From a virus (Duplodnaviria > Heunggongvirae > Uroviricota > Caudoviricetes), in IMG/VR virus record IMGVR_UViG_3300022468_000286: a stretch of DNA of 64,000 nucleotides; one strand, given 5' to 3'. Each line of letters opens with the position of its first letter. Position 1 is the stretch's first letter. The notes under the pieces were generated by a model. The model did not search any database. It saw only the letters and a program-made list of their open reading frames with translations, and had not been told where the DNA came from. Shown one piece after another: positions 4,187-58,080 of the stretch. A program made the translations under genes and the position numbers.

Positions 4187-7100
4187 ATGCTTAATCTAAG
4201 CGAATTAGCTTTTACAGTTCGGACTGAAGCCCTTGTAGATGCGGCTAATAAAGTAGCGGCTCTTGGGGAGTCCGTAGAGAACCTTGCAGGTTCATTCCAG
4301 AAACTAGAAAAGGCATCTTCAGATGCTGAGAAAACACAATCGCGAAATGCTAAGGCTGCAGCACAAGCTGTAGAAGCTCAAGCTAAGCCAAATAAGGCTC
4401 TAAGTGAAGCTGAATCTGCTGCGCTTAAAACAACCTCTGAACGTACTGATGCTGAAACTAAGAAGGTTAAAGCTCTAAAGGCAACGACACAAGCTGTAGA
4501 TGAAAGTACAGAAAGCGCCAAGAAGAGTTTAAGTATCCTTGAGCGCCAACAAACCATTCTAGAATTCCAAGCTAATGGTTACTCTAAAGGGCAATCCTCA
4601 ATTCTTGCATATGCTAAAGCTGCCGGTGTAGCTTCGGATGAAATTCAAGAAATCGGCAGAGTTCTACAAGCACAGAGAACTCTCATGGGAGGTGATCCGT
4701 TTGATAAAAGTCTAGGAAGCCTTCGCTCACTCCAGAACGAATTTAAATCTCTGAAAGAAGTACAACGTCTTTACACTGCAGAAATACCTTTAACTAGAAA
4801 GCAGATGGAAAATCTGGCTCTCGATAAGATTCGCCTTATCGAAGCTATGAAGATCGAGGGCAAGTCGATGACTGACATTAAAAACGCCATCCGTCAACTT
4901 AATGTAGAGTATATCACAACTGCCGGTAGTATTAATAAAATGATTCAAGCTGAGAACGCAATTGATGCTGCTCATAAAGATGCAGCTAAAGCGGCCTCGT
5001 ACCTTGAACGTGAAATGCAACGTGTAAACTTTGCCCTTCAAGAACAGAACAATGAACTGAACAAAGGTACTGCTAATGCTCTTAATCGTTTTGAACAAAA
5101 CCTGAAGCGTAGTGGACTTACCCTTGATCAGCAAAGAGTAAAGATGGATGAATATCGCAAATCTTTACTTGCTCTGGAAAAGACTAAAGGCGGTGGGAAT
5201 ACGGATTATATTAGTCGTGCCCTTGGTCCACAGATTACTGATATTTTCGTTGGTCTTGCTACAGGACAAAGCCCGTTGACAGTTATGCTTCAACAAGGTG
5301 GTCAACTGCGAGATCAGTTTGCTCTTGCTGGTGTTGCTGCTGCTGATATGGGTGCTACCATGCGTACTGCTGCTAGGGAGATGGTAACATCTGTAGCCGC
5401 TGTTGCTGGTGCCTTTAAGGATTTAATTGTAGGCGCCTTCATTGATACAGGCAAGGGTCTTGTGAACATGGTTGTTCAGTTTACAGGGCTGGCTAATGTA
5501 ATTGAAAAGGCAAGATATCAATTAACTCTGTTTGCAATGTCAGACCCATCTTTTGGTAAACCCCTGCTCGCTTTCTTTGCTGCACTTCGTGTGGCTGTGA
5601 TTGGTTTTGCAGCTACTATGGCCGCTACAGGTATTGGGGCGCTTATAGCTATGGCGGTTGCTATCAAGCAAGTTATCTCTGAAAATAATACTCTAGCGCG
5701 CTCTCTAGCTCTGTCTGGTGGAAGTCTAGCATTAACTCATAGTTCTGCTGTGCAGTTTGTAGAGACACTTTCAAGCATGGGAGTTACAACTGGCGTTGCT
5801 ACTGAAGCTCTGGCTGCAATGGCTAAGGCTGGCGGTTTCACAAGAGATGAAATTCTTATGGTAGGCAAGGCCGCTGCCGAGATGTCTACATATGCTGGCG
5901 TTTCGGTAGAAGATACAGTTAAAGCCTTTGATAAGCTCAAAGATAAGCCTGTAGAAGCCCTTATAGATATTGCCAAATCAACTGGTATGGTTTCTATTGA
6001 AACTATTAAGATGGTTGCTGAATTGCAAAAGGCAGGAAAGACGACAGAAGCTGCTGCGCTGGCTATGAAGACATATGCGGACGTTACTAAAACTCAAGTA
6101 CAGCAAATGAAGGATAACTATAATGGTTTTTCTTTGTTCATGATTAACTTGGGCAAGGGAATTAAGAACTTCTTCTCTGAGACTTTCAAAGTTCTTTTCT
6201 TAGCTAGTGATCCAACTAAGGAACTAGAAAAGCAACTTAGGAATACTCAAACACTGATTAACCAGTATAAAGGCGCTGCCACTTATACCCCTGAGGGTGC
6301 CACTGGAAGACAGGTAAAAATACTGGAAGAGCGTGCTAGAATGATCTCCAGCGAAATTAGCTCACAAGTGAGGCTGAATACTGAAAAAGAGAAACAACTT
6401 CAGCAGCAATCAGAAGAGGCCAAAAACTTTGGAATCGTTTCTGATGTTATGAAAGGTGTTAGCGGCGTGCTTGATAAGCAAATCGAGAAGACTCTTTCAC
6501 TGACAGATTACACTAAAAAGTACATCGCAGAGAAAACAAAAGAAGGCAAGTTCTCAAAAGAACAGCTTGCTAATATTGAAAAAGCCGCAAAGATTGAATG
6601 GGAAGGTCTGCAAAAGAAATCAAGCAATAAAGCTGATCCTCAAGAGAAGTATTTCGAGAGCCTAATGCGTAGTCTAACAAATGAAACAATCAAGGCTACA
6701 ACAGAACAGGACAAGTTAACCAAAGCATATACCAAGATGCTTGAATTAGCTGCCGACCCTCGATTCCAGAAACTTTCTGAACAAGAGAAAGCTAAAGCAT
6801 TTGACCTGCTAAACCAAGCTCATAACGCTGAACTAGCAACTGCTGCTACTGAACGTCAGACCGCAGCCGAAGAACTTAGGAATAAAGTTCTAGGTAAGGC
6901 AGAAGGACTTGGGAAGGAATATTACGATACTCTTGCGAAGATTCAACAGTACAATAAAGACGGTGTGTACTCTGATTCAGAAGTTATTCAACTGACTGAA
7001 GCATTATATAGAGCCACTCCTGCCTATAAAGCAAATATCAAAGCTGTTGAAGAGCTTAACGGCCTTCTTTTGAAATACAAAGAAGCAGCTATGGCAAGCT

Positions 7101-18367: not shown

Positions 18368-18980
18368 TAGGTTCCTTTACTGTGTTAAGCATCCAAAGAT
18401 ACAGCAATCTTATTTCATCAATTGATGCATTCCCTTTCAGCATATTAGCCCTATTAGATATAATCTGTATATTACCTTTCAAATACCCTTTAGTTGGATC
18501 AATACGATCAATTGAATAAGTCCAATCGTGGTCGCCATAGATAAACTCTCTATCAAAAACAGGACATTTTTCAGGTAGAACAATATCCTGCAATTCTAGA
18601 TCAAAATCTATCCCGTTCTTTTTAGCCCTTGATTTAGCCCTATTGTATATGCGCTTTTCGATTGATATCTCGACCCACTGCCTTTCCGACTTTTTACATT
18701 CTTTGCATCTGGAGGTGTCATATCCGGTAATGGTAGATTTATGTTTACTGAAGTGTGTTACAGATTTTTCAAAACCACAATTATTACATCTTAGTTTTGT
18801 TTTTTCACCGACAGGTTTCCTTCGTGTCATTTTACCTCGTAACGGGATATCCTCTAACTCAAGAATTTTATACAGCATATAAGTTGTCAAAGGAGGGGAG
18901 ACTAGCTCCCTGATCTTCAGAATATCCTCACCGGCTGTATAAGCTTGAATTATTTCTTTTCTTACCATGTCACTGAACAT
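18339..18980 (-). CDS. HNH homing endonuclease
   Basis: 213 aa with a Zn-finger CNNCG...CKEC and the HNH core YSIDRIDPTKGYLKGNIQIISNRAN. It is adjacent to the RNR gene. Confidence 0.65.
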   Translation of the reverse strand: MFSDMVRKEIIQAYTAGEDILKIRELVSPPLTTYMLYKILELEDIPLRGKMTRRKPVGEKTKLRCNNCGFEKSVTHFSKHKSTITGYDTSRCKECKKSERQWVEISIEKRIYNRAKSRAKKNGIDFDLELQDIVLPEKCPVFDREFIYGDHDWTYSIDRIDPTKGYLKGNIQIISNRANMLKGNASIDEIRLLYLWMLNTVKEPSVPFWKQTW

Positions 18981-20185
18981 GCACCACCAGCACAGGCTTG
19001 ACTCCCCATAGTATCTACCTCAGTGTATACTTGCTTAGAAAGCTGTGTACTGAAGTCAATATCAATATAACTATTCCTGATAGCTTCCCACTTATGTAGA
19101 TTGAAGCAATCCTTCAAGCAGAAGGTCATCTGCATAATATCTCCATTGAAGAAGTTATTAGCAAACTTAGTGGCACGGCGAATCCAATCACGCTTCAGCA
19201 AGTCCTCAGAATTTTCCGGGTCAATCTTCAGTCCGAATCCAAGTGCAGTATCACATGCCATCCAGAGGTTGTTATTGAACGCATGCAGACCCTCAACTAC
19301 AAGTCCTGATGCAAACATACTTGCCGCACCATATCTCTGTAGAATCTGCTCTGCTGTAAGAACTTCCGTAAATGGAGCTTGAGCATATGCACGATCACCC
19401 ATAGAACTCAACAGAGAAACACCAGCAAACCACTGGCGATTATCGAACAGATATTGTTCAACCTCATCCCAGTCATCTACAGTAATGGTGTTACTGATGT
19501 TGTGCCGGAGGTTTTTATCAACACCCAGATCAACATTTGTACCAGCCTCTACCCAGAATTGTTGTGCCTTCTTGACATACTCAAGTTGCTTAACACCAAG
19601 CAGTTGATCCTTGTAAACAGAACCTTCCTTGCTTGTAATAGGGAAGCTCACAACAACGTCAGTTCCATTTGAACTCCATACAGATTTCTCAACCATCTTC
19701 GGGTTCTTCTCTGCAATAATCTTTGCTACTTCGTCATGCTCATTCATCTGTACATTTCGGAAGTACAGAGGTGAATGCTCACCGTGAATACCAGAAGCCG
19801 TGCCCAGAATAACCGAAGCGTTACCAGAAGGTTTAGCACAAGTAGTACGCGCTGCTGGATTAATTCCAATCAGTGCAGCAATCTCTCGATTAACTTCCTT
19901 GACTAGGTTAGCACCTTCAATCATGTTTTCTTCATTAAAGAGAATGTCAGGGCTATTCATCCATCCAGTAATCGACACACCAATCAATGCTTCACGTTCT
20001 GTAATTCTGCGGGTTGCATCTGTTAGATACTTGAAGTTTGTATATCCAGCTTGCAGAGTACCAAGAATAGCACTAGCGCGGCACATACGCAGGAATGTAG
20101 GAACATCCACACACATCCCGCCATTGCCCTCCGTAAGATTGCAAAATTGAAATCCACTCTCACCGTCTTCTGCTGTTGGCAACAT
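18962..20185 (-). CDS. Ribonucleotide reductase large subunit, 3' exon (C-terminal half)
   Basis: It contains the catalytic-site region FCNLTEG and a C-terminal Cys tail QACAGGACSVTW. The true exon start lies downstream of the listed ATG. Confidence 0.65.
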   Translation of the reverse strand: MLPTAEDGESGFQFCNLTEGNGGMCVDVPTFLRMCRASAILGTLQAGYTNFKYLTDATRRITEREALIGVSITGWMNSPDILFNEENMIEGANLVKEVNREIAALIGINPAARTTCAKPSGNASVILGTASGIHGEHSPLYFRNVQMNEHDEVAKIIAEKNPKMVEKSVWSSNGTDVVVSFPITSKEGSVYKDQLLGVKQLEYVKKAQQFWVEAGTNVDLGVDKNLRHNISNTITVDDWDEVEQYLFDNRQWFAGVSLLSSMGDRAYAQAPFTEVLTAEQILQRYGAASMFASGLVVEGLHAFNNNLWMACDTALGFGLKIDPENSEDLLKRDWIRRATKFANNFFNGDIMQMTFCLKDCFNLHKWEAIRNSYIDIDFSTQLSKQVYTEVDTMGSQACAGGACSVTW

Positions 20186-20995
20186 GCCAATTTCAACACC
20201 TTTATTTGTTACTCTGCTTTCGCAGGGTCAAGTCATTTCTGCTTGACTCTATATATCACTATATAGAACAGACTATATCATCACCCATTTCTGGGGTTTA
20301 TCGTCCGAGCTTATAACTAAAACTTGGCAGGGTGTATTCACCAATAAGAGCATCGAATTTCTCAACATCCCTAGCACGAAGCCTGAGATACCAATAATTG
20401 TTTTGACGGTTAATATTGAATTCAAGACCAAGCTTTTCTTTAATAGCTTGTTTCAGTAATAGATTATCTCCATAACTGAATCCCTTAGTATTCAATGTAA
20501 TGTTTGGTTTAGCATCTGGGGAGCGTTGATCTTGCACCCTACTACCATCTGCCATAAAAATAATTGCTAATGCTTCTGCATCCATAAGGGTAAGCATATG
20601 CGGGTCAATTACTTTCTTACCGTCAATATAAATTCGATTTCTAATTGTTGTTAATTTTGGATGATTTTTAGAACGTAGTGTAATCTGTGGCTTTCTGTTA
20701 AAACCATCGTCAGTTAATTTACGGTCTGAAATTGAACATCCAATCCCTGCCTCTACCAGAGTATCACGTACTTTTTCAACGTAATCGCTATTCTCTTTTT
20801 TCATATTCATGGTAAATGAAGCGTTGGTAGAATTCGCAACTAAGTATAAACCACCATCAAAGGTAGAAAAATAGTATAGTCGCTTAGTTAGTTCTTTACT
20901 CATAGTCGTTGCACCTTCCATATCGGATTGGCACAGGATTATCTCACTGAGACTTCCCCTGTTTTTAGATAAATTATTCATAAGACCTTACGATC
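20186..20995 (-). mobile_element. Group I-type intron with embedded LAGLIDADG HEG interrupting the RNR gene (boundaries approximate)
   Basis: The RNR reading frame is broken by stops on both sides of a free-standing 227-aa HEG ORF with its own RBS. An in-frame intein is excluded. Confidence 0.5.
20298..20981 (-). CDS. LAGLIDADG homing endonuclease (two motifs)
   Basis: The motifs are YYFSTFDGGLYLV and AIIFMADGS, about 100 aa apart. Confidence 0.6.
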   Translation of the reverse strand: MNNLSKNRGSLSEIILCQSDMEGATTMSKELTKRLYYFSTFDGGLYLVANSTNASFTMNMKKENSDYVEKVRDTLVEAGIGCSISDRKLTDDGFNRKPQITLRSKNHPKLTTIRNRIYIDGKKVIDPHMLTLMDAEALAIIFMADGSRVQDQRSPDAKPNITLNTKGFSYGDNLLLKQAIKEKLGLEFNINRQNNYWYLRLRARDVEKFDALIGEYTLPSFSYKLGR

Positions 20996-22006
20996 TTAGG
21001 CCGCTAGTTTTAACGGATTATAGCAGAACTCTTTATTATCAGTAAAGATAAAGCCGGGCTCACCGAAATCCTTCACAGATTTCATAATGTCTCGCCATTC
21101 ATCTCGCGTCAGTTCGTCACGGATAAGCATCACAGAGTTATTGCTGCGACCACGTTGAGGGTTCTTGGCAAACCAGTTACCAGTTTTTGCCTTCAGCATA
21201 TCCTGATCATCTTTATCGAACAGACAGATGGTAGCACTGCGACGTACACCACCAGACAAAACAGCGTCAGACATATGCATAACAAAATCATATGCAACGA
21301 TTGTAGGAATCTTGACTGCTACCTTACTATTTACCACGAGGTCTTGTAAAAGCTTTTCACACTTCACAAGGGATTCACGCAGACCATCAGGGCCGGGAGC
21401 CTTGAAACCTCCAGAAATCATCGCACCTTTTGGTCGAATCAAGCTATAATCAAAGTGAACCTGCACGCCTTGATATTCTGGGAAAGTAGCACCTTCAGTC
21501 AAATAGCTTGAAATAAGTACACCATAAGCATCAGCCCAACCCTCGATAGTGTCAGGTACGGTAAATACCTTTACTCGTTTTTCACTACGTTTCTGAATAC
21601 TTGGGATTTTATTTACATGATGTTTTTGAACTGAGAATCCTACACCGCAACCGCACAGCAGTAGGTACATTGCTTCTTGAAAGAAGGCTGGACGATCACA
21701 ATGCGAAACCGAACAATTATACATTCTAGCATTATGCTTGAATAGTTGTTCACCGCCGAATTGCAAAGCACGTTGTGCACCAAGTACAAGCTTTTCCTTA
21801 TAGGCTTCTTCTGCGTAATCAATAGCTGCAGCCAGAGCAGGAGTCATTTTATCTTTATACTTTTCCCGGTGCATGTTCATCACACGCTGTACAGATTCTA
21901 CCCATGATTCATAACGCTTATCTTCTTCAACCCACCGTGAATAGCCCATATAGAACTTAGATTGAGCCATCATGTCTTTTGTATTTTGTTCAGCTTTAAT
22001 TGTCAT
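20996..22006 (-). CDS. Ribonucleotide reductase large subunit, 5' exon (N-terminal half, no ATP cone)
   Basis: 336 aa ending ...GEPGFIFTDNKEFCYNP, just before the conserved catalytic NxCxE region. A stop follows, then the HEG. Confidence 0.6.
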   Translation of the reverse strand: MTIKAEQNTKDMMAQSKFYMGYSRWVEEDKRYESWVESVQRVMNMHREKYKDKMTPALAAAIDYAEEAYKEKLVLGAQRALQFGGEQLFKHNARMYNCSVSHCDRPAFFQEAMYLLLCGCGVGFSVQKHHVNKIPSIQKRSEKRVKVFTVPDTIEGWADAYGVLISSYLTEGATFPEYQGVQVHFDYSLIRPKGAMISGGFKAPGPDGLRESLVKCEKLLQDLVVNSKVAVKIPTIVAYDFVMHMSDAVLSGGVRRSATICLFDKDDQDMLKAKTGNWFAKNPQRGRSNNSVMLIRDELTRDEWRDIMKSVKDFGEPGFIFTDNKEFCYNPLKLAA

Positions 22007-47730: not shown

Positions 47731-49155
47731 TTACACACTGGCGTTAGCACGTACTTGATCAAAGGTCATAGAGTTCAGCACCTGACCGTTGAGGTAACGG
47801 CAGATGAGAGCCCCGTCAGAGGTATCTTCACGAGTCAGAAGGTTATCCGTCACGTACTCACCGTCATTGCCCCGGAAGAGCCACACAAGGCCCTTCTTGG
47901 ATACCTTGCCCTTATCGGTAACTGGGTCTTTGAACACGTCACGCCAATCAACAGAAGCAAAGAATCCTTCGTCTGAATCAAGCTTTTCGTTATTACCGAC
48001 AGCACTGCACTTCATGGCGTACTTCTGGTCATCCCGTGTAACAGCTTGCAGCAATGCACCGCCTTGGCCGAAGGCGAGCATATCAGCAGAGTACCCGTAA
48101 ATGTCCACAGCAGTACGCAGGATGGTTTCAATGGTGAGCTTAGTAATACCGTCGCCCCAGATCATGCGAACGTTATTCAGAACCTTGTAGCCCTTATCGT
48201 TCGTCACATATCCGAAGTATTGTTCAAGGATTCGCAAGCATGTAGGTACGACCAAAGCAGGATCGCCGCTATCAGGACGGACAACAAGAGTAGCACAGCT
48301 TGCCTTGATTTCCTCTGCAAGTTCACCCCACATATGGCATGCCTTGTAGATATCATACGAATCAGATACGCATGCAAAGATAGCACCGGGCTTGGCAAAT
48401 TTCTTAATCATATTGCGGTAAGCATCCTTTTCACCGTCACGACCCCAAGAGGTAATCGTGCTGTGTTCGCTCGCGCCGATACTGAAAATAACAGGCTCGG
48501 TAGCGTCGTAATACTTAGCAGCAAACAGTTGACCAGTCATAGTGTCAGAGCCCATGAAATTTACGGCATGCGACAGAGAGCCAAGACCAGCAGTTTCAAA
48601 GCTAGAAGCACCACGAGCGCCAAAGTCATGCAGCTTGAAATCCAGACCAGAAACATCTCCGGACTTTTCAAGGTAGCTTTTGATTACCTTCTTGATTTCC
48701 CGAGAGTTAGTAGCGACAGTAGAAGTGTACCATGCAGCGCGAAGGAGAGCAGTTTCAATCCAAGTAGTTGCGAATGGAAATTCAGGGTCAGTATTGACAA
48801 CCACAGCAAGAACATTCTTTGTCTTGACAACAGAGCCATCTGGTACTGCAAATACAGCCACAGGCCAATAACCGTTGTACTTCTTGAACATCTTACGGAT
48901 TTGTTCTTCAGGGAATACACTACCGAAAGCAGGCCAAGTCTTCACTGCAAAGTCAATATCTTCTTCAGTGAAGGGCTTAGACAGATATTCACGGATGAAA
49001 GGCTGGACAAGTCCTGCGACCACTTCATCATAAATCCCACCGCGAGATTCAATGTAAGAGTAAACGTATTGCACATCTTCAGGGTATTGGGCAAACATGC
49101 CTACCTTGTAAGAGTCCGTGTTGAGAAGAATGGATTGTGTGTTGAAATTAGTCAT
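47731..49155 (-). CDS. nadV: Nicotinamide phosphoribosyltransferase (NAMPT/NadV)
   Basis: 474 aa type II PRTase with NAMPT-family organisation and DFGARGASS. Confidence 0.8.
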   Translation of the reverse strand: MTNFNTQSILLNTDSYKVGMFAQYPEDVQYVYSYIESRGGIYDEVVAGLVQPFIREYLSKPFTEEDIDFAVKTWPAFGSVFPEEQIRKMFKKYNGYWPVAVFAVPDGSVVKTKNVLAVVVNTDPEFPFATTWIETALLRAAWYTSTVATNSREIKKVIKSYLEKSGDVSGLDFKLHDFGARGASSFETAGLGSLSHAVNFMGSDTMTGQLFAAKYYDATEPVIFSIGASEHSTITSWGRDGEKDAYRNMIKKFAKPGAIFACVSDSYDIYKACHMWGELAEEIKASCATLVVRPDSGDPALVVPTCLRILEQYFGYVTNDKGYKVLNNVRMIWGDGITKLTIETILRTAVDIYGYSADMLAFGQGGALLQAVTRDDQKYAMKCSAVGNNEKLDSDEGFFASVDWRDVFKDPVTDKGKVSKKGLVWLFRGNDGEYVTDNLLTREDTSDGALICRYLNGQVLNSMTFDQVRANASV

Positions 49156-49165
49156 AGTAAGCTCC

Positions 49166-50194
49166 TTACTTTGGGTTGATAATGAAAGAGTTATAAAAAG
49201 CAGGCAAGGGTTTTGTCTGCGTCATCACCTGAATTATATCAGAATGATCGTCATGCAGTCTATAAGTATTTACTGCATCTGAGATAGGAACCCACTTGCA
49301 CTCTGCTGCGTCGTCAGCACCATTTGCTCTTGGCAACTTACCGTCAGCATCTGGTGCGATCTTGAAGTGTACCACAAAAGTGCTGCGAGGAATACCTGAG
49401 CCGCGTGTAGGGCTATCAAAAAGTTTAGTATTTACGATTGAACCTACCAGAACTTTCTCAGGAACACGAAGATTGGTTTCCTCGAAAGCCTCGCGGATGG
49501 CGCATTCTGTAAAAGTTTCAGTATTATTCTTGAATCCTCCCGGAAGAGCCCAAGTATTACGCCCCGGTGCGTACTTCCGACGAATCAGTAGAATATGTCC
49601 ATTGCATTCAATCAGAGCGTCTGAGCAGACAAAGTTCAAAGTCTCCGGATATGGGTAGTCCTTGAAACGATGATTTTCATTAATGAAATACTTGAAGTCC
49701 TCTACAACATCCTCTGGAAGTGCAAGTCCACTGTGTTCTTTTTGATTAACGAACATGCTCCATCGAATAGTAGTTGCATTGATATTACTTGAGCTTTCGA
49801 TATTATGAAAGCCATATTGCGGGAACCACTTCAGATAATCATTACCCTCTTTATCAAACCCAAAGAGAATCCTCTTGCCGAATGATTTATGCATATTGAC
49901 GATCTCTTGTACATCAAGAATCCACTGAGTATCACTGTACTTATAGTCATTCACAGGGATTACCTGAGCGTCTTCAAAATCCAGACCATTCTTATCTAGA
50001 AAAGCCTGAATCAGTTCCTTGCGCTCGGAGTAAGTCCAAGGGTTTTTGATTGTTCGTGCTACGTTAGCACTACCTACGACGATTAGAAGCTTGTCGCAGA
50101 GCTTCTTAGCCTTCAGGATAATCTCCTTGTGTCCTTCGTGCAGAGGTTGGAATCGACCAATAATGATTCCGAGAGTCTTTGTTTTTTCTTGCAT
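49166..50194 (-). CDS. Bifunctional NMN adenylyltransferase / Nudix hydrolase (NadM-Nudix type)
   Basis: The N-terminal GIIIGRFQPLHEGH nucleotidyltransferase motif is present. The Nudix box is LPGGFKNNTETFTECAIREAFEETNL. Confidence 0.8.
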   Translation of the reverse strand: MQEKTKTLGIIIGRFQPLHEGHKEIILKAKKLCDKLLIVVGSANVARTIKNPWTYSERKELIQAFLDKNGLDFEDAQVIPVNDYKYSDTQWILDVQEIVNMHKSFGKRILFGFDKEGNDYLKWFPQYGFHNIESSSNINATTIRWSMFVNQKEHSGLALPEDVVEDFKYFINENHRFKDYPYPETLNFVCSDALIECNGHILLIRRKYAPGRNTWALPGGFKNNTETFTECAIREAFEETNLRVPEKVLVGSIVNTKLFDSPTRGSGIPRSTFVVHFKIAPDADGKLPRANGADDAAECKWVPISDAVNTYRLHDDHSDIIQVMTQTKPLPAFYNSFIINPK

Positions 50195-51333: not shown

Positions 51334-51783
51334 CTAATCTCCTTTAAAAATTTCCACAAGTATACCAGCTTCACGAAGCAAGTCAAGACCTTTTGTATCA
51401 CGGTAAGGCTCTTTGTATATCAACCTAGTGATACCAGCATTTATCATCATAGCAGAGCATGGAACGCAGGGCGACAGTGTAACATACATTGCAGACCCAA
51501 GGCAAGAGACTCCTTCACGAGCAGCTTTCATTATACAGTTCAATTCAGCATGAATAACTTCTGGTTTTGTAATAAGTTCTGGAGGGTTCCAGTGTCCCCA
51601 CTTAAAAATCTGATCTTCGCACTCGTTAGAAAGCCCTATAGGCGTTCCATTGAATCCAGCTAGGCATACCCCTTGGCTAGTCACCAAACAGGCCCCTACG
51701 GTGGCTCTACGGGCCTTGCTGAGCTTTGCGTGCAGCATTGCTACACCCATGTATGTACTATCAAGTTCTTTTTGATTAGCCAC
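51334..51783 (-). CDS. dCMP deaminase
   Basis: The zinc motifs are HAELNCIMKAA and SPCVPCSAMMINAGI. Confidence 0.8.
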   Translation of the reverse strand: MANQKELDSTYMGVAMLHAKLSKARRATVGACLVTSQGVCLAGFNGTPIGLSNECEDQIFKWGHWNPPELITKPEVIHAELNCIMKAAREGVSCLGSAMYVTLSPCVPCSAMMINAGITRLIYKEPYRDTKGLDLLREAGILVEIFKGD

Positions 51784-52217
51784 TAAGATTTCTCCAAAGA
51801 TTCAAAAACTTTAAATTTCCTATCCAGTAGCCACAGCAAGCCATCATCCCCGTAATTATAATCATCAGGGATTCTCCAGCAGTGAGCTTTTCTATGCACC
51901 TCATCCAGCAAATCATGATTGGTATTTGCAAGATGCTTGCGGACACTGTATTCATTATCTTCGTTCATGAAGATTATATGGTCAGCCCACCATATCAAAT
52001 TCTCAGAGATAGGAATCAGTGCAAGCTTGAGATTGCTACCGCAAGAGCGAGCGTTATATCCGCGCTTAATAGCCTCTGCTGCAGCCGTAGGACTACGCAG
52101 AAGACCAACAGTGCATACGAAAAGAAGACGCTTGGCTGGACCTTGCGAATGATTATTATAAGGGCAACCATTAGCGAATAGCTTCTCTGTTTTTGTGATA
52201 TACGGCTCTACTGACAC
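51783..52217 (-). CDS. Low-molecular-weight protein tyrosine phosphatase / ArsC-fold phosphatase-like
   Basis: The CX5R(S/T) P-loop is LLFVCTVGLLRSPTAAAEA. 144 aa. Confidence 0.5.
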   Translation of the reverse strand: MSVEPYITKTEKLFANGCPYNNHSQGPAKRLLFVCTVGLLRSPTAAAEAIKRGYNARSCGSNLKLALIPISENLIWWADHIIFMNEDNEYSVRKHLANTNHDLLDEVHRKAHCWRIPDDYNYGDDGLLWLLDRKFKVFESLEKS

Positions 52218-52435
52218 GGAATACCTCCACCATTTTCATTAAGGATTTGCTGAACAGTTGTTTGCCGGGCTACATTGTGAAGATATCCAGCAATGCAGCG
52301 CTGCTCCACTGGTACTTGATATGTGTGCTGCATTGGCTCTTTATTTTGTGGAAAGAGGATTGTAGCTGCGATAGCAACAATCACTATAGCTATCAGCATT
52401 TCAATAAATCCAAATCCTTTTTGTAGGAATTTCAT
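52208..52435 (-). CDS. Type IV pilin / pseudopilin-like protein
   Basis: The class III signal is MKFLQKG|FGFIEMLIAIVIVAIAA, with Glu at +5 and a hydrophobic helix. The C-terminal Cys pair is RCIAGY...IPCQ. 75 aa. Confidence 0.6.
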   Translation of the reverse strand: MKFLQKGFGFIEMLIAIVIVAIAATILFPQNKEPMQHTYQVPVEQRCIAGYLHNVARQTTVQQILNENGGGIPCQ

Positions 52436-52496
52436 ATAACCTCCAAGAATAAACCCTGAGTATACCAGAAGTGTACTCAGGGTTAAGGCTTTAAGA

Positions 52497-53297
52497 TTAC
52501 TTGTTGATATTACCCAGAGCAGTCAGATTGCTAGGGATAATGATCGTCTGTACCTTGCCAGCCTTAACAGCTTCTGCAATCAGCAGTTGAGACTGAGCCT
52601 GCATGTAAGCAATACTTTGACCTGCATTCTCAGACAGAGCCTTTTGGCGCTTTGCTTCGGCTTCAGCAATTGCAATTTCGTTTTGCTTAATCTTCAGTTC
52701 ATTCTGAGACTTCACAAGGTCAGTAGCAGCCTTGAGAATATCAGCATTAGGCTGAATATTCCGAACCTGCACCGCAGACAGAATCAAGGAAGTATCAAGC
52801 TTTTCTTCACGAAGTTGCGCTTGAACTAGATCACGAATCTCAGCTTCAATCTTCACTCGGCTATCAGCGACTTCCAAGGACTTGTAGCCACGGACGGACT
52901 TGTAAACAGCGTTATTGACCAAGGTATTCATGTAATTATACATCAGGTAAACATCCCCGTCAGTTCCCTTCATGTGAAAACTCTTGGCTTTATTCTTGTA
53001 AAGCTCTGCAACAGCAGTAGGAGACACGCTATACACGATGCTTACATCAAAATCCGCCAGAGCAGAGTTATCAGCCGTCAAGGGCTTTGCATCATTAAGA
53101 GGGACAGTCAAATCTCGAATTGGGAATTGCAGAACATCCCCAAACAGAACTTGATGGTATCCAGTGTTGAGTTCATTACCCTCGATAGTACCGCCAGTGG
53201 TAACACGCACACCGATTTCGCCGTCAGTAATCCGTGTGCAACCAGTGCTAAATGCAGCAGCAACAACCAGAGCAGCAATCATAAAAAACTTCTTCAT
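52497..53297 (-). CDS. SPFH/band-7 (stomatin/HflK/C-like) lipoprotein
   Basis: The start MKKFFMIAALVVAAAFSTGC has an RBS aaaggag. The SPFH core and a C-terminal coiled-coil (EAEAKRQKALSE...) follow. The ORF-track start at 53360 is an extension. Confidence 0.55.
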   Translation of the reverse strand: MKKFFMIAALVVAAAFSTGCTRITDGEIGVRVTTGGTIEGNELNTGYHQVLFGDVLQFPIRDLTVPLNDAKPLTADNSALADFDVSIVYSVSPTAVAELYKNKAKSFHMKGTDGDVYLMYNYMNTLVNNAVYKSVRGYKSLEVADSRVKIEAEIRDLVQAQLREEKLDTSLILSAVQVRNIQPNADILKAATDLVKSQNELKIKQNEIAIAEAEAKRQKALSENAGQSIAYMQAQSQLLIAEAVKAGKVQTIIIPSNLTALGNINK

Positions 53298-53307
53298 ATA
53301 AACTCCT

Positions 53308-53505
53308 TTAAAGAAAAATAACAATACACATTGTAGCAAGTGCAGCAAGGATTGCAACACCTACATATAGAAACAAAGCTTTTACTGGAACTTGTGGAAG
53401 GTATTTCTTCACTCCATAGTAAATAAAAACCATTAGTACATATACTAGAGTGAAACTCAGAAGTACTTTAATCAAAGGAAGCATAGTATTATGCGTTGGT
53501 GTCAA
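53308..53505 (-). CDS. Small 2-TMD membrane protein (NfeD-like partner candidate)
   Basis: 65 aa hydrophobic, immediately upstream of the SPFH gene. Confidence 0.35.
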   Translation of the reverse strand: MTPTHNTMLPLIKVLLSFTLVYVLMVFIYYGVKKYLPQVPVKALFLYVGVAILAALATMCIVIFL

Positions 53506-57733: not shown

Positions 57734-57907
57734 ATGAATACATTTACAGAAATTCAGGTCAAGAAACTTCTAGAATCCAGACACAAGACGGAAGACGGTA
57801 AGCCGATAGATCAGGTTTGGTTCACCAGAAAAGAAGTTCTAAAAATCCTTGACAACGCTCAAAAAGAATTGCAAAATACCACATCAAACAACATAAGGAG
57901 TAAATCA
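57734..57907 (+). CDS. Small hypothetical protein (57 aa)
   Basis: ORF MNTFTEIQVKKLLESRHKTEDGKPIDQVWF... Confidence 0.2.
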
Positions 57908-58080
57908 TGAGTTTTATTATTTTGATTATTTTGCTGGTGCTTTACTTTGTGCCAAGCATCGTAGGCTACAGCCGTAACCACAAGCAGACTACACCAATCC
58001 TGCTGCTGAACATCTTCCTCGGATGGACTGCACTGGGATGGGTTGCAGCACTGGTGTGGGCCAGCATGAAGCAAGACTAA
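57907..58080 (+). CDS. Superinfection immunity (Imm-like) small membrane protein
   Basis: 57 aa, MSFIILIILLVLYFVPSIVGYSRNHKQTTPILLLNIFLGWTALGWVAALVWA. This matches the LGWT..GW..AL.WA Imm_superinfect pattern. Confidence 0.45.
   Translation: MSFIILIILLVLYFVPSIVGYSRNHKQTTPILLLNIFLGWTALGWVAALVWASMKQD

Follow-up and report, generated by a model that had tools for sequence, protein, structure and literature searches.

The 64,000-nucleotide stretch of the caudoviricete record IMGVR_UViG_3300022468_000286 analysed here, which we refer to in its full length as the window, carries on its minus strand, at 52208..52435, a gene for a 75-residue protein that combines a class III (prepilin-type) signal with a small C-terminal domain bounded by two cysteines. 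This protein, which we call a mini-pilin, belongs to a family carried near-exclusively by phages, is often encoded in a cassette together with an SPFH lipoprotein, and has a fast-evolving N-terminal helix segment of mosaic origin. The explanation that we favour, with a probability of roughly 45%, is that the mini-pilin would be processed by a host peptidase and would enter a type IV filament platform as a pseudo-subunit, disturbing or blocking the filaments; its processing, target and physiological outcome are what we infer from the sequence features described below.

An intact class III signal in a 75-residue phage protein

The elements of the gene and its product are the following, with cleavage sites marked by a slash here and throughout.

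52208..52435, minus strand: mini-pilin coding sequence, 75 amino acids (aa), coordinates with the stop codon (open reading frame (ORF) list, PF07963 and TIGR02532, homologues P0001 and P0002, more than 50 family members).
52440..52444, minus strand: Shine-Dalgarno sequence GGAGG, 4 nt 5' of the mini-pilin ATG (read off the sequence).
52415..52435, minus strand: class III leader MKFLQKG, ending in Gly-1, with a predicted prepilin-peptidase cut after Gly-1 (sequence; leaders of the family).
52349..52414, minus strand: alpha1N-like hydrophobic segment FGFIEMLIAIVIVAIAATILFP, 22 residues, with Phe+1, Glu+5 and, at its end, Pro22 (translation).
52214..52297, minus strand: Cys47-Cys74 loop CIAGYLHNVARQTTVQQILNENGGGIPC, the family-defining, putatively periplasmic mini-domain (translation, invariant residues, predicted strands).

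The translation, MKFLQKGFGFIEMLIAIVIVAIAATILFPQNKEPMQHTYQVPVEQRCIAGYLHNVARQTTVQQILNENGGGIPCQ, divides into leader and mature part as MKFLQKG/FGFIEMLIAIVIVAIAATILFPQNKEPMQHTYQVPVEQRCIAGYLHNVARQTTVQQILNENGGGIPCQ. Both general models of the prepilin signal recognise it above their curated cut-offs, Pfam N_methyl (PF07963) with 29.2 bits (cut-off 21.2) and NCBIfam TIGR02532 with 27.9 bits (cut-off 16.3), which bears out the class III leader, Gly-Phe junction, Glu+5 and hydrophobic helix that a sequence-only reading had described at this position, and adds that the gene lies on the minus strand. A regular-expression scan of the 64-kb window, covering all possible starts in six frames, found the class III motif in the mini-pilin ORF only, and scanning 30 shuffles gave no occurrence. 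That reading had also relied on the translation start that yields the leader; this start is well supported, since GGAGG stands 4 nt before the ATG and the homologues share the same N-terminus in the family sequence comparison, and a wrong start codon is ruled out on the same two grounds. When the window is compared with a 92-95% identical relative, five of the six differences in the final 120 nt of the mini-pilin gene are synonymous.

Cleavage by PilD-type peptidases depends above all on Gly-1, and Glu5 and Pro22 have roles in the docking, packing and assembly of type IV filaments. Because Glu5 and Pro22 are retained besides Gly-1, the protein points to the assembly machinery and not to the peptidase alone. 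A motif search of the window for the PilD-like motif GxGD[VF]K found none, so that leader cleavage would need a host enzyme; a prepilin peptidase encoded by the phage within the window is ruled out by the absence of this motif. Conservation of the class III signal across the family speaks for reliance on a prepilin peptidase of the host.

The signal is conserved in a family found almost only in phages

Megablast of the 50-55 kb region found nothing among 50,697 phage records, and a direct protein search returned two metagenomic homologues only, P0001 and P0002, which are 99% and 79% identical; the automatic JGI name of P0001 is 'prepilin-type N-terminal cleavage/methylation domain-containing protein'. 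Four further homologues came from a search of IMG/VR, and weak C-terminal tblastn matches, which were then used in building profiles, led to proteins of Acidovorax phage ACP17 (81 aa) and Synechococcus phage BUCT-ZZ01 (83 aa). One profile (A2) was made from the C-terminal part alone, leaving out the signal and most of the helix; with it, 56 proteins of 66-91 aa were retrieved, 55 of which were aligned. A canonical class III signal, leader-Gly/FTLIE, is present in 46 of these 55 members (84%); since they were retrieved through their C-termini only, the signal is under selection, and a chance transmembrane segment is ruled out by its family-wide conservation. Leaders of the canonical members are 3-8 residues long, with Phe+1 in 41 and Pro22 in 36 of the 46. 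An exhaustive HMMER search of 1.84 billion representatives gave a family size of 437 clusters at E<=1e-10; the 'fusion' proteins of 146-234 aa that it also returned mostly appear to be over-extended gene calls.

All readable family contexts look phage-derived, including a 190-kb contig, a 359-kb jumbo contig and T4-like regions of early or nucleotide-metabolism genes, where RNase H, DNA ligase, 'Phage_DsbA' and NAMPT are encoded. A scan of 185,579 bacterial and archaeal species genomes (one each), starting from alignment A1, gave no tblastn-confirmed relative, and a degenerate DNA pattern run over the same number of species genomes matched once, beside a Vsr-like endonuclease in a Sideroxyarcus metagenome-assembled genome, where the match is probably a prophage. 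These species-genome scans are pattern-limited, and the virus-only distribution of the family is best described as a strong tendency.

The window itself encodes a 1960-aa tape measure protein, rIIA, a family-A DNA polymerase, a primase-helicase and RNA and DNA ligases, along with a class II ribonucleotide reductase, dCMP deaminase, NAMPT, a NadR-like NMN adenylyltransferase/Nudix protein and two tRNAs. Judged by this gene content it is a large lytic phage, in line with the earlier statement that the gene is phage-borne. The mini-pilin gene sits outside the tail genes, in a minus-strand block of replication, nucleotide-metabolism and small-ORF genes. The closest relatives of the primase-helicase are in Limnohabitans phage DC31 (63%) and Curvibacter phage P26059A (47%), followed by PAK_P1-like Pseudomonas phages, and the host is probably a freshwater proteobacterium.

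A fast-evolving, mosaic N-terminal segment

In the syntenic locus L015, the mini-pilin is 41% identical to that of the window, compared with 82% for the SPFH protein and 80% for NAMPT. The mini-pilin therefore evolves much faster than its neighbours, as is typical of host-interface proteins. A DNA-level comparison with locus L002 localises the divergence: the flanks are 92-93% identical and the final 120 nt of the mini-pilin gene 95%, whereas the first ~36 codons, encoding leader, alpha1N and linker (52325-52435 in the window, 102-212 in L002), are 63% identical. On this evidence the leader-alpha1N-linker stretch is a sharply bounded mosaic or replaced segment, and Gly-1, Glu+5 and Pro22 survive within it. 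The Cys-loop is 100% conserved between the window and P0002.

A compact Cys-loop domain in place of the pilin fold

The Cys-loop spans ~30 residues and follows the pattern C-x2-G-Y...Q-I-L-x3-G-G-G-I-P-C. Cys47, Gly50, Gln63, Gly69, Gly71 and Cys74 are invariant across the 55-member alignment, so that the cysteine pair pointed out previously in the short C-terminal domain proves to be a constant feature of the family, and we infer a Cys47-Cys74 disulfide from its sequence. An AlphaFold2 monomer model computed from the 55-sequence alignment (mean predicted local distance difference test score (pLDDT) 79) consists of an 18-residue helix at 10-27, a Pro-containing linker and a beta-hairpin-like domain of ~30 residues between both cysteines, with short strands at 44-48, 51-55 and 61-63 (pLDDT 82-89).

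The model lacks the alpha-beta roll of pilins, in which an alpha1 helix of ~53 residues packs on a 4-5-stranded sheet. Foldseek of the model against the PDB found nothing significant (best E 0.9), and against BFVD it placed the ACP17 homologue first, the rest being other uncharacterised phage proteins. Searched against solved structures, the family profile aligns to type IVa (T4a) pilins and GspG at profile positions 1-47 only, through alpha1N matches to geopilin domain 1, PilA, PilE and GspG (E 3e-9 to 6e-4), and the same profile search detected no sequence relative of the Cys-loop among PDB entries. Neither the fold search of the PDB nor the profile search detected homology between this loop, with its invariant cysteines, and the D-regions of pilins. 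An AlphaFold comparison had been proposed as a check of minor-pilin likeness, and it speaks against that likeness, with a helix, linker and hairpin in place of an alpha-beta roll and a C-terminus that matches nothing in the PDB. By model and profile, the Cys-loop is a new compact periplasmic module that has no known structural or sequence relative.

Relation to known pilins, viral pilins and pilus inhibitors

With the T4a major pilins (PilA/PilE) and GspG of type II secretion systems (T2SS), the mini-pilin shares the basic leader, the Gly-1/Phe+1 junction, Glu+5, a hydrophobic alpha1N of ~21 residues and Pro22. It differs in having a Cys-closed hairpin of ~30 residues instead of alpha1C and the 4-5-stranded sheet, and in that its gene belongs to a lytic phage and not to a pilus or T2SS operon. 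Family-specific pilin and pseudopilin models (GspH/I/G, PilV, ComGC-GF and others) reach 12-22 bits against cut-offs of 44-158; ComGE is the best of them with 22 bits (cut-off 49), GspH has 17.8 (80), GspI 13.2 (44) and PilV 14 (52), all of them cover the N-terminal 18-35 residues alone, and a Pfam scan of the protein returned no match besides N_methyl. Flp/Tad membership is contradicted by Met, not Tyr, after Glu5 (family consensus FTLIELM), and Pfam gave no Flp match at E<=1. The neighbouring genes, which encode the SPFH lipoprotein, a small protein with two transmembrane segments (2-TM), a phosphatase-like ORF, dCMP deaminase and NAD-salvage proteins, do not form a minor-pilin operon. Of the earlier designation as a minor pilin or pseudopilin with an intact prepilin-peptidase site, the site therefore stands and the family label falls, because the specific models stay below their cut-offs and the pilin fold is absent; on profiles and model, 'mini-pilin' fits the protein better than 'minor pilin'.

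Geobacter-type PilA-N, or geopilin domain 1 (61-90 aa), is comparable in size and, of all solved structures, matches best in sequence (9egp, 7tgg, 2m7g); geopilins demonstrate that type IV machinery accepts even very short pilins. They are nearly one long helix and have no cysteines, whereas the helix of the mini-pilin is predicted to stop at about residue 27, with the Cys-closed beta domain after it; the geopilin alignment covers profile positions 3-36 only. Among viruses, PilA1 and PilA2 of the Natrinema archaeal virus SNJ2 likewise are virus-encoded proteins with a class III signal that rely entirely on the host, using its PilB/PilC-type machinery (PMC12426801), and SNJ2 was the only case that we found in the literature on phage-encoded pilins or pseudopilins. 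SNJ2 is temperate, and its full-size, host-derived pilins build the filaments that dominate the cell surface and are of advantage to the lysogen (PMC12426801); the carriers of mini-pilins, in contrast, are bacterial phages, large and lytic where the context is informative, and the domain was not found in cellular genomes.

By analogy with SNJ2, the host might assemble filaments from the phage subunit or decorate its pili with it, with adhesion, aggregation or the provision or alteration of a receptor as the result. A complete T4a-type alpha1N with Glu5 and Pro22, the ability of very short pilins to form filaments (with Geobacter PilA-N among the best PDB matches) and the documented hijacking of host machinery by archaeal viral pilins would suit such a role. 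We nevertheless consider it quite unlikely, as the mini-pilin has neither alpha1C nor a globular domain to make a filament surface, lytic phages with an early or metabolic gene setting leave little time for a benefit, relatives with exchanged anchors (described below) would be unable to polymerise, and no minor pilin set accompanies the gene.

Phage proteins that block type IV pili (T4P) have the same outcome as we propose, namely loss of functional T4P in the infected cell, by which pilus-dependent phages are shut out. One of them, PfsE, reportedly targets the platform protein PilC. A 2024 review describes superinfection exclusion by D3112 Tip/gp05, DMS3 Aqs1, Pf4 PfsE and QDWS gp21; the blockers that it covers target the ATPase PilB or interfere with expression, and a pilin-mimic mechanism is absent from its list (PMC11436027). 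None of these four proteins is pilin-like or has a class III signal, as the descriptions of Tip, Aqs1 and PfsE bear out (PMC11436027).

A phage ORF with a prepilin signal is in itself already known from virulent phages, among them the well-studied PAK_P3 and PhiW-14. PAK_P3 gp139, PhiW-14 gp120, Acibel004 gp97 ('PilE-like') and USV40915 of Xanthomonas phage BUDD have KG/FTLIE N-termini and 44-107 aa, are uncharacterised and lie among small early-type genes. USV40915 has a similar Cys-bounded tail; PAK_P3 gp139 and PhiW-14 gp120 have neither a Cys-loop nor an SPFH neighbour and form separate families that have the signal alone in common with ours. Both of the latter are annotated as hypothetical, gp139 (1201-1380 in L026) beginning MKKEKG/FTLTEAMIV… and gp120 (1201-1335 in L027) beginning MKYLKG/FTLIELMIV…; at 44-59 aa they comprise little beyond a prepilin leader and alpha1N, as independent 'alpha1N-only' pilin mimics of phages. 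We found no description of the Cys-loop family, of its size or viral restriction, of the SPFH cassette, or of a tested function of a bacteriophage pilin-like protein.

The mini-pilin gene is part of a recurrent SPFH cassette

Upstream of the mini-pilin gene lie two further genes of the same strand.

52497..53297, minus strand: SPFH/Band-7 lipoprotein, 266 aa, lipobox FSTG/C (PF01145, 5e-18; phrog_200 'lipoprotein', 6e-36).
53308..53484, minus strand: small membrane protein (2-TM) of 58 aa, encoded at the head of the cassette (translation).

The 58-aa protein had no match in Pfam, and PADLOC returned none for any of the cassette proteins. From sigma-70-like sites on the minus strand, at 53975-53948 and 53357-53330, expression is predicted to be early. 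The gene order (2-TM protein, then SPFH lipoprotein, then mini-pilin) is found again in L006, L008 and L009, all three with overlapping stop and start codons, and in L015, L016/L017, L022 and L024, with 2-TM ORFs of 55-60 aa preceding the SPFH gene in L006, L009, L015, L016/17, L022 and L024; L018 has the SPFH and mini-pilin pair behind a small ORF of different look. The genes flanking these recurrent cassettes are otherwise unrelated to the window. Across loci, 41 distinct members were recognised, 37 of them with at least 1 kb of upstream sequence, and in 19 of these 37 an SPFH gene lies no more than 700 nt upstream on the same strand. Such SPFH genes are rare, being present in 43 of 50,697 phage records, so the linkage of SPFH and mini-pilin genes goes far beyond chance and, on gene order, indicates a functional module.

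The Acinetobacter phages Bphi-R2919, AbTZA1, AM24 and XC38 (L011-L014), which represent four unrelated phage types (myo-, sipho- and podovirus), encode a 2-TM protein of ~85 aa followed by an SPFH lipoprotein, with overlapping stop and start codons and no mini-pilin gene 3' of SPFH. The 2-TM and SPFH pair is, by this distribution, a broader uncharacterised two-gene module. SPFH/Band-7 proteins are also co-encoded with one or more small membrane partners in bacterial SPFH-NfeD operons; there the likeness ends, as neither phage partner is NfeD-like (PF01957) and the phage SPFH protein is a lipoprotein and not N-terminally transmembrane-anchored. An NfeD-like partner by homology is ruled out, the 2-TM protein and the mini-pilin both lacking similarity to NfeD. 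The function of phage SPFH lipoproteins has been stated to be unclear (PMC13239085), and our literature search found no paper joining SPFH, prepilin and phage.

A small inner-membrane protein beside a lipoprotein also recalls lysis-related envelope pairs of spanin or antiholin type. The analogy extends to the N-in/C-out topology of the small protein, to a C-terminal coiled coil in the lipoprotein and to cysteines in the periplasmic part. As an explanation of the cassette it is extremely unlikely. Neither endolysin nor holin adjoins it, its neighbours being dCMP deaminase, a kinase, NadR/NAMPT and small ORFs; the 266-aa SPFH lipoprotein has no cysteine besides that of the lipobox; and the mini-pilin, with ~45 periplasmic residues and no coiled coil, falls far short of the length at which a two-component spanin (Rz/Rz1) bridges the periplasm. 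We rejected a spanin or antiholin identity for want of a lysis context.

In two otherwise different contigs, an ORF of ~450 aa lies directly upstream of the 2-TM/SPFH/mini-pilin cassette (3514-4842 in L006, 3607-5010 in L009); judged by eye, it is possibly TROVE/Ro-like.

Proposed mode of action

In the explanation that we favour, the mini-pilin would be made with its class III signal as a bitopic inner-membrane protein, and a host prepilin peptidase of PilD/GspO type would cut the 7-residue leader and methylate Phe+1. The mature product of 68 residues would then present a T4a-like alpha1N (Glu5, Pro22), a short Pro-rich linker and, in the periplasm, a disulfide-closed beta-hairpin domain of ~30 residues. 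It would enter the assembly platform of T4P, T2SS or competence systems as a decoy subunit; entry as a pseudo-subunit seems the most likely course because the docking features Glu5 and Pro22 are conserved, and not the cleavage features alone. Since the normal globular domain is missing, a normal filament surface could not be formed, and filament dynamics would be disturbed or blocked. The phage might gain from loss or masking of a receptor (superinfection exclusion, with fewer progeny lost on infected cells) or from a shut-down of secretion or DNA uptake. Expressed from a three-gene envelope cassette, the mini-pilin would probably act together with the SPFH scaffold.

An abundant mini-prepilin could alternatively act one step earlier, by occupying PilD/GspO and starving T4P, T2SS and competence systems of mature subunits while itself remaining unassembled. 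The conserved cleavage site, the minimal size and the strong ribosome site would all serve this purpose, and every type IV filament system would be struck at once. We give the idea little credence, because it leaves Pro22, the Cys-loop, the SPFH linkage and the anchor-swapped relatives unexplained, and because existing pili and pools of mature pilin would be expected to outlast a short lytic cycle.

Several observations weigh against entry into a filament platform. The alpha1N of the window is off consensus at Gly+2, where 44 of the 46 canonical members have Thr, and at Phe+3; the monomer model has a low predicted template modelling score (0.37); PilD and T4P in the host are assumed, the nearest phages infecting Limnohabitans and Curvibacter; and about half of the family members have no SPFH neighbour, as in BUCT-ZZ01, where the SPFH and mini-pilin genes are ~12 kb apart. 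The anchor varies as well. Nine of the 55 aligned members (about 16%) bear the Cys-loop on an N-terminus that is not class III: six have a plain hydrophobic transmembrane anchor (the ACP17 protein, P0003, in which Gly-1 and Glu5 are lost, and P0008, P0013, P0018, P0043 and P0054), P0021 has a degenerate site, RGN/ITLIE, and P0046 and P0048 have a lipoprotein signal, as has P0049 outside the alignment. Because members with such non-pilin anchors exist, the Cys-loop is evidently able, as far as sequences tell, to work without being incorporated into filaments. Locus L023 has tandem paralogues, one with a class III-like N-terminus, KERG/LTLME (5001-5222), and one with a plain hydrophobic anchor (5213-5470).

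These variants fit a different explanation, the main rival of the one that we favour, in which the periplasmic Cys-loop would be the effector on any anchor, as a partner or regulator of the SPFH scaffold in an NfeD-like role or directed at a target unrelated to pili (such as membrane integrity, a porin, a receptor or the blocking of DNA entry), the class III signal serving as one insertion route. The L023 pair and the anchor-swapped members with plain transmembrane segments or a lipobox speak for it, and it accounts for a loop that is invariant, and identical in P0002, behind a mosaic N-terminus, for the tight and often translationally coupled linkage to SPFH, and for the 2-TM and SPFH pair without a pilin in Acinetobacter phages. 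A plain anchor, however, would have no need of Gly-1, of a charged Glu5 within the helix or of Pro22, which are kept in 84% of members and even after segment replacement; the members that lack an SPFH neighbour and the missing similarity to NfeD tell against it as well. We therefore regard this explanation as possible but doubtful.

The original proposal, poisoning or capping of pili or T2SS, is plausible but has to be widened in view of the anchor-swapped members and the SPFH cassette. A more far-reaching version, which we rate as unlikely, would make 2-TM protein, SPFH lipoprotein and mini-pilin a widespread, hitherto unrecognised envelope-takeover module, in which the decoy, matured by the host peptidase, docks through alpha1N and its disulfide-stapled hairpin recruits or positions an SPFH cage, so that the machine is jammed or sealed. 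If this were true, phages would exclude superinfection or shut off secretion by mimicking pilins, with the mosaic alpha1N as the determinant of host specificity.

Type IV filament systems (pili, T2SS and competence pseudopili) are of major importance as phage receptors, in virulence and for the uptake of DNA. If the decoy explanation holds, several hundred or more clusters of decoy-like mini-pilins would represent a different, apparently common anti-filament strategy, and they would offer a first functional handle on phage SPFH lipoproteins; should the Cys-loop bind a conserved pilus or secretion component, it might become a probe or an anti-virulence lead. If the function is instead unrelated to pili, the family would still show that phages employ class III signals generally to bring small effectors into the envelope.

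Further features of the cassette and the window

Two additional features adjoin the mini-pilin gene.

52452..52484, minus strand: hairpin between the SPFH stop codon and the mini-pilin ribosome site (RNA fold).
51783..52217, minus strand: ORF of 144 aa with a 10-nt overlap with the mini-pilin stop (ORF list).

The RNA fold of the hairpin has -27.2 kcal/mol (z -5.07), a stability that none of 200 shuffles equalled, and in the minimum-energy fold its outer stem pairs the SPFH stop region with GGAGG. As folded, it could be a coupling device or attenuator of mini-pilin translation, or a terminator. In L006, L008 and L009 the SPFH and mini-pilin genes overlap, in place of an intervening hairpin.

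The 144-aa ORF has a P-loop of the low-molecular-weight (LMW) phosphatase/ArsC type, LLFVCTVGLLRSPTAA, with the CX5RS motif (VCTVGLLRSP), and matches Pfam LMWPc weakly (15.6 bits, under the cut-off). It overlaps the mini-pilin gene likewise in L002, and in the syntenic L015 an HNH gene takes its place; whether it belongs to the cassette module is uncertain.

In two other family members, P0061 and P0063, a SecA-like SEC-C zinc-binding motif (…CxCGSGxKxKKCC…) immediately precedes the predicted cleavage site; provided that the genes are called correctly, their leaders would be unusually long, structured and cytoplasmic.

At 57907-58080 (plus strand) the window encodes a protein of 57 aa that is homologous to the superinfection immunity protein of T4 (PF14373 Imm_superinfect, 66.5 bits), and the phage thus already has, ~5.5 kb away from the cassette, one classical exclusion function. 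The class II (B12-dependent) ribonucleotide reductase at 18962-22006 (minus strand) is split into two ORFs, 20996-22006 and 18962-20185, between which lies a LAGLIDADG homing endonuclease gene (20298-20981; PF03161, 6.5e-21); the split probably reflects an intron or the insertion of a free-standing endonuclease. The NAD salvage pair at 47731-50194 (minus strand) consists of NAMPT (474 aa) and a NadR-like cytidylyltransferase/Nudix protein (342 aa) and is syntenic in L015; this NAMPT is ~50% identical to the NAMPTs of RsoM2USA, ACP17, RSP15 and Mx1.

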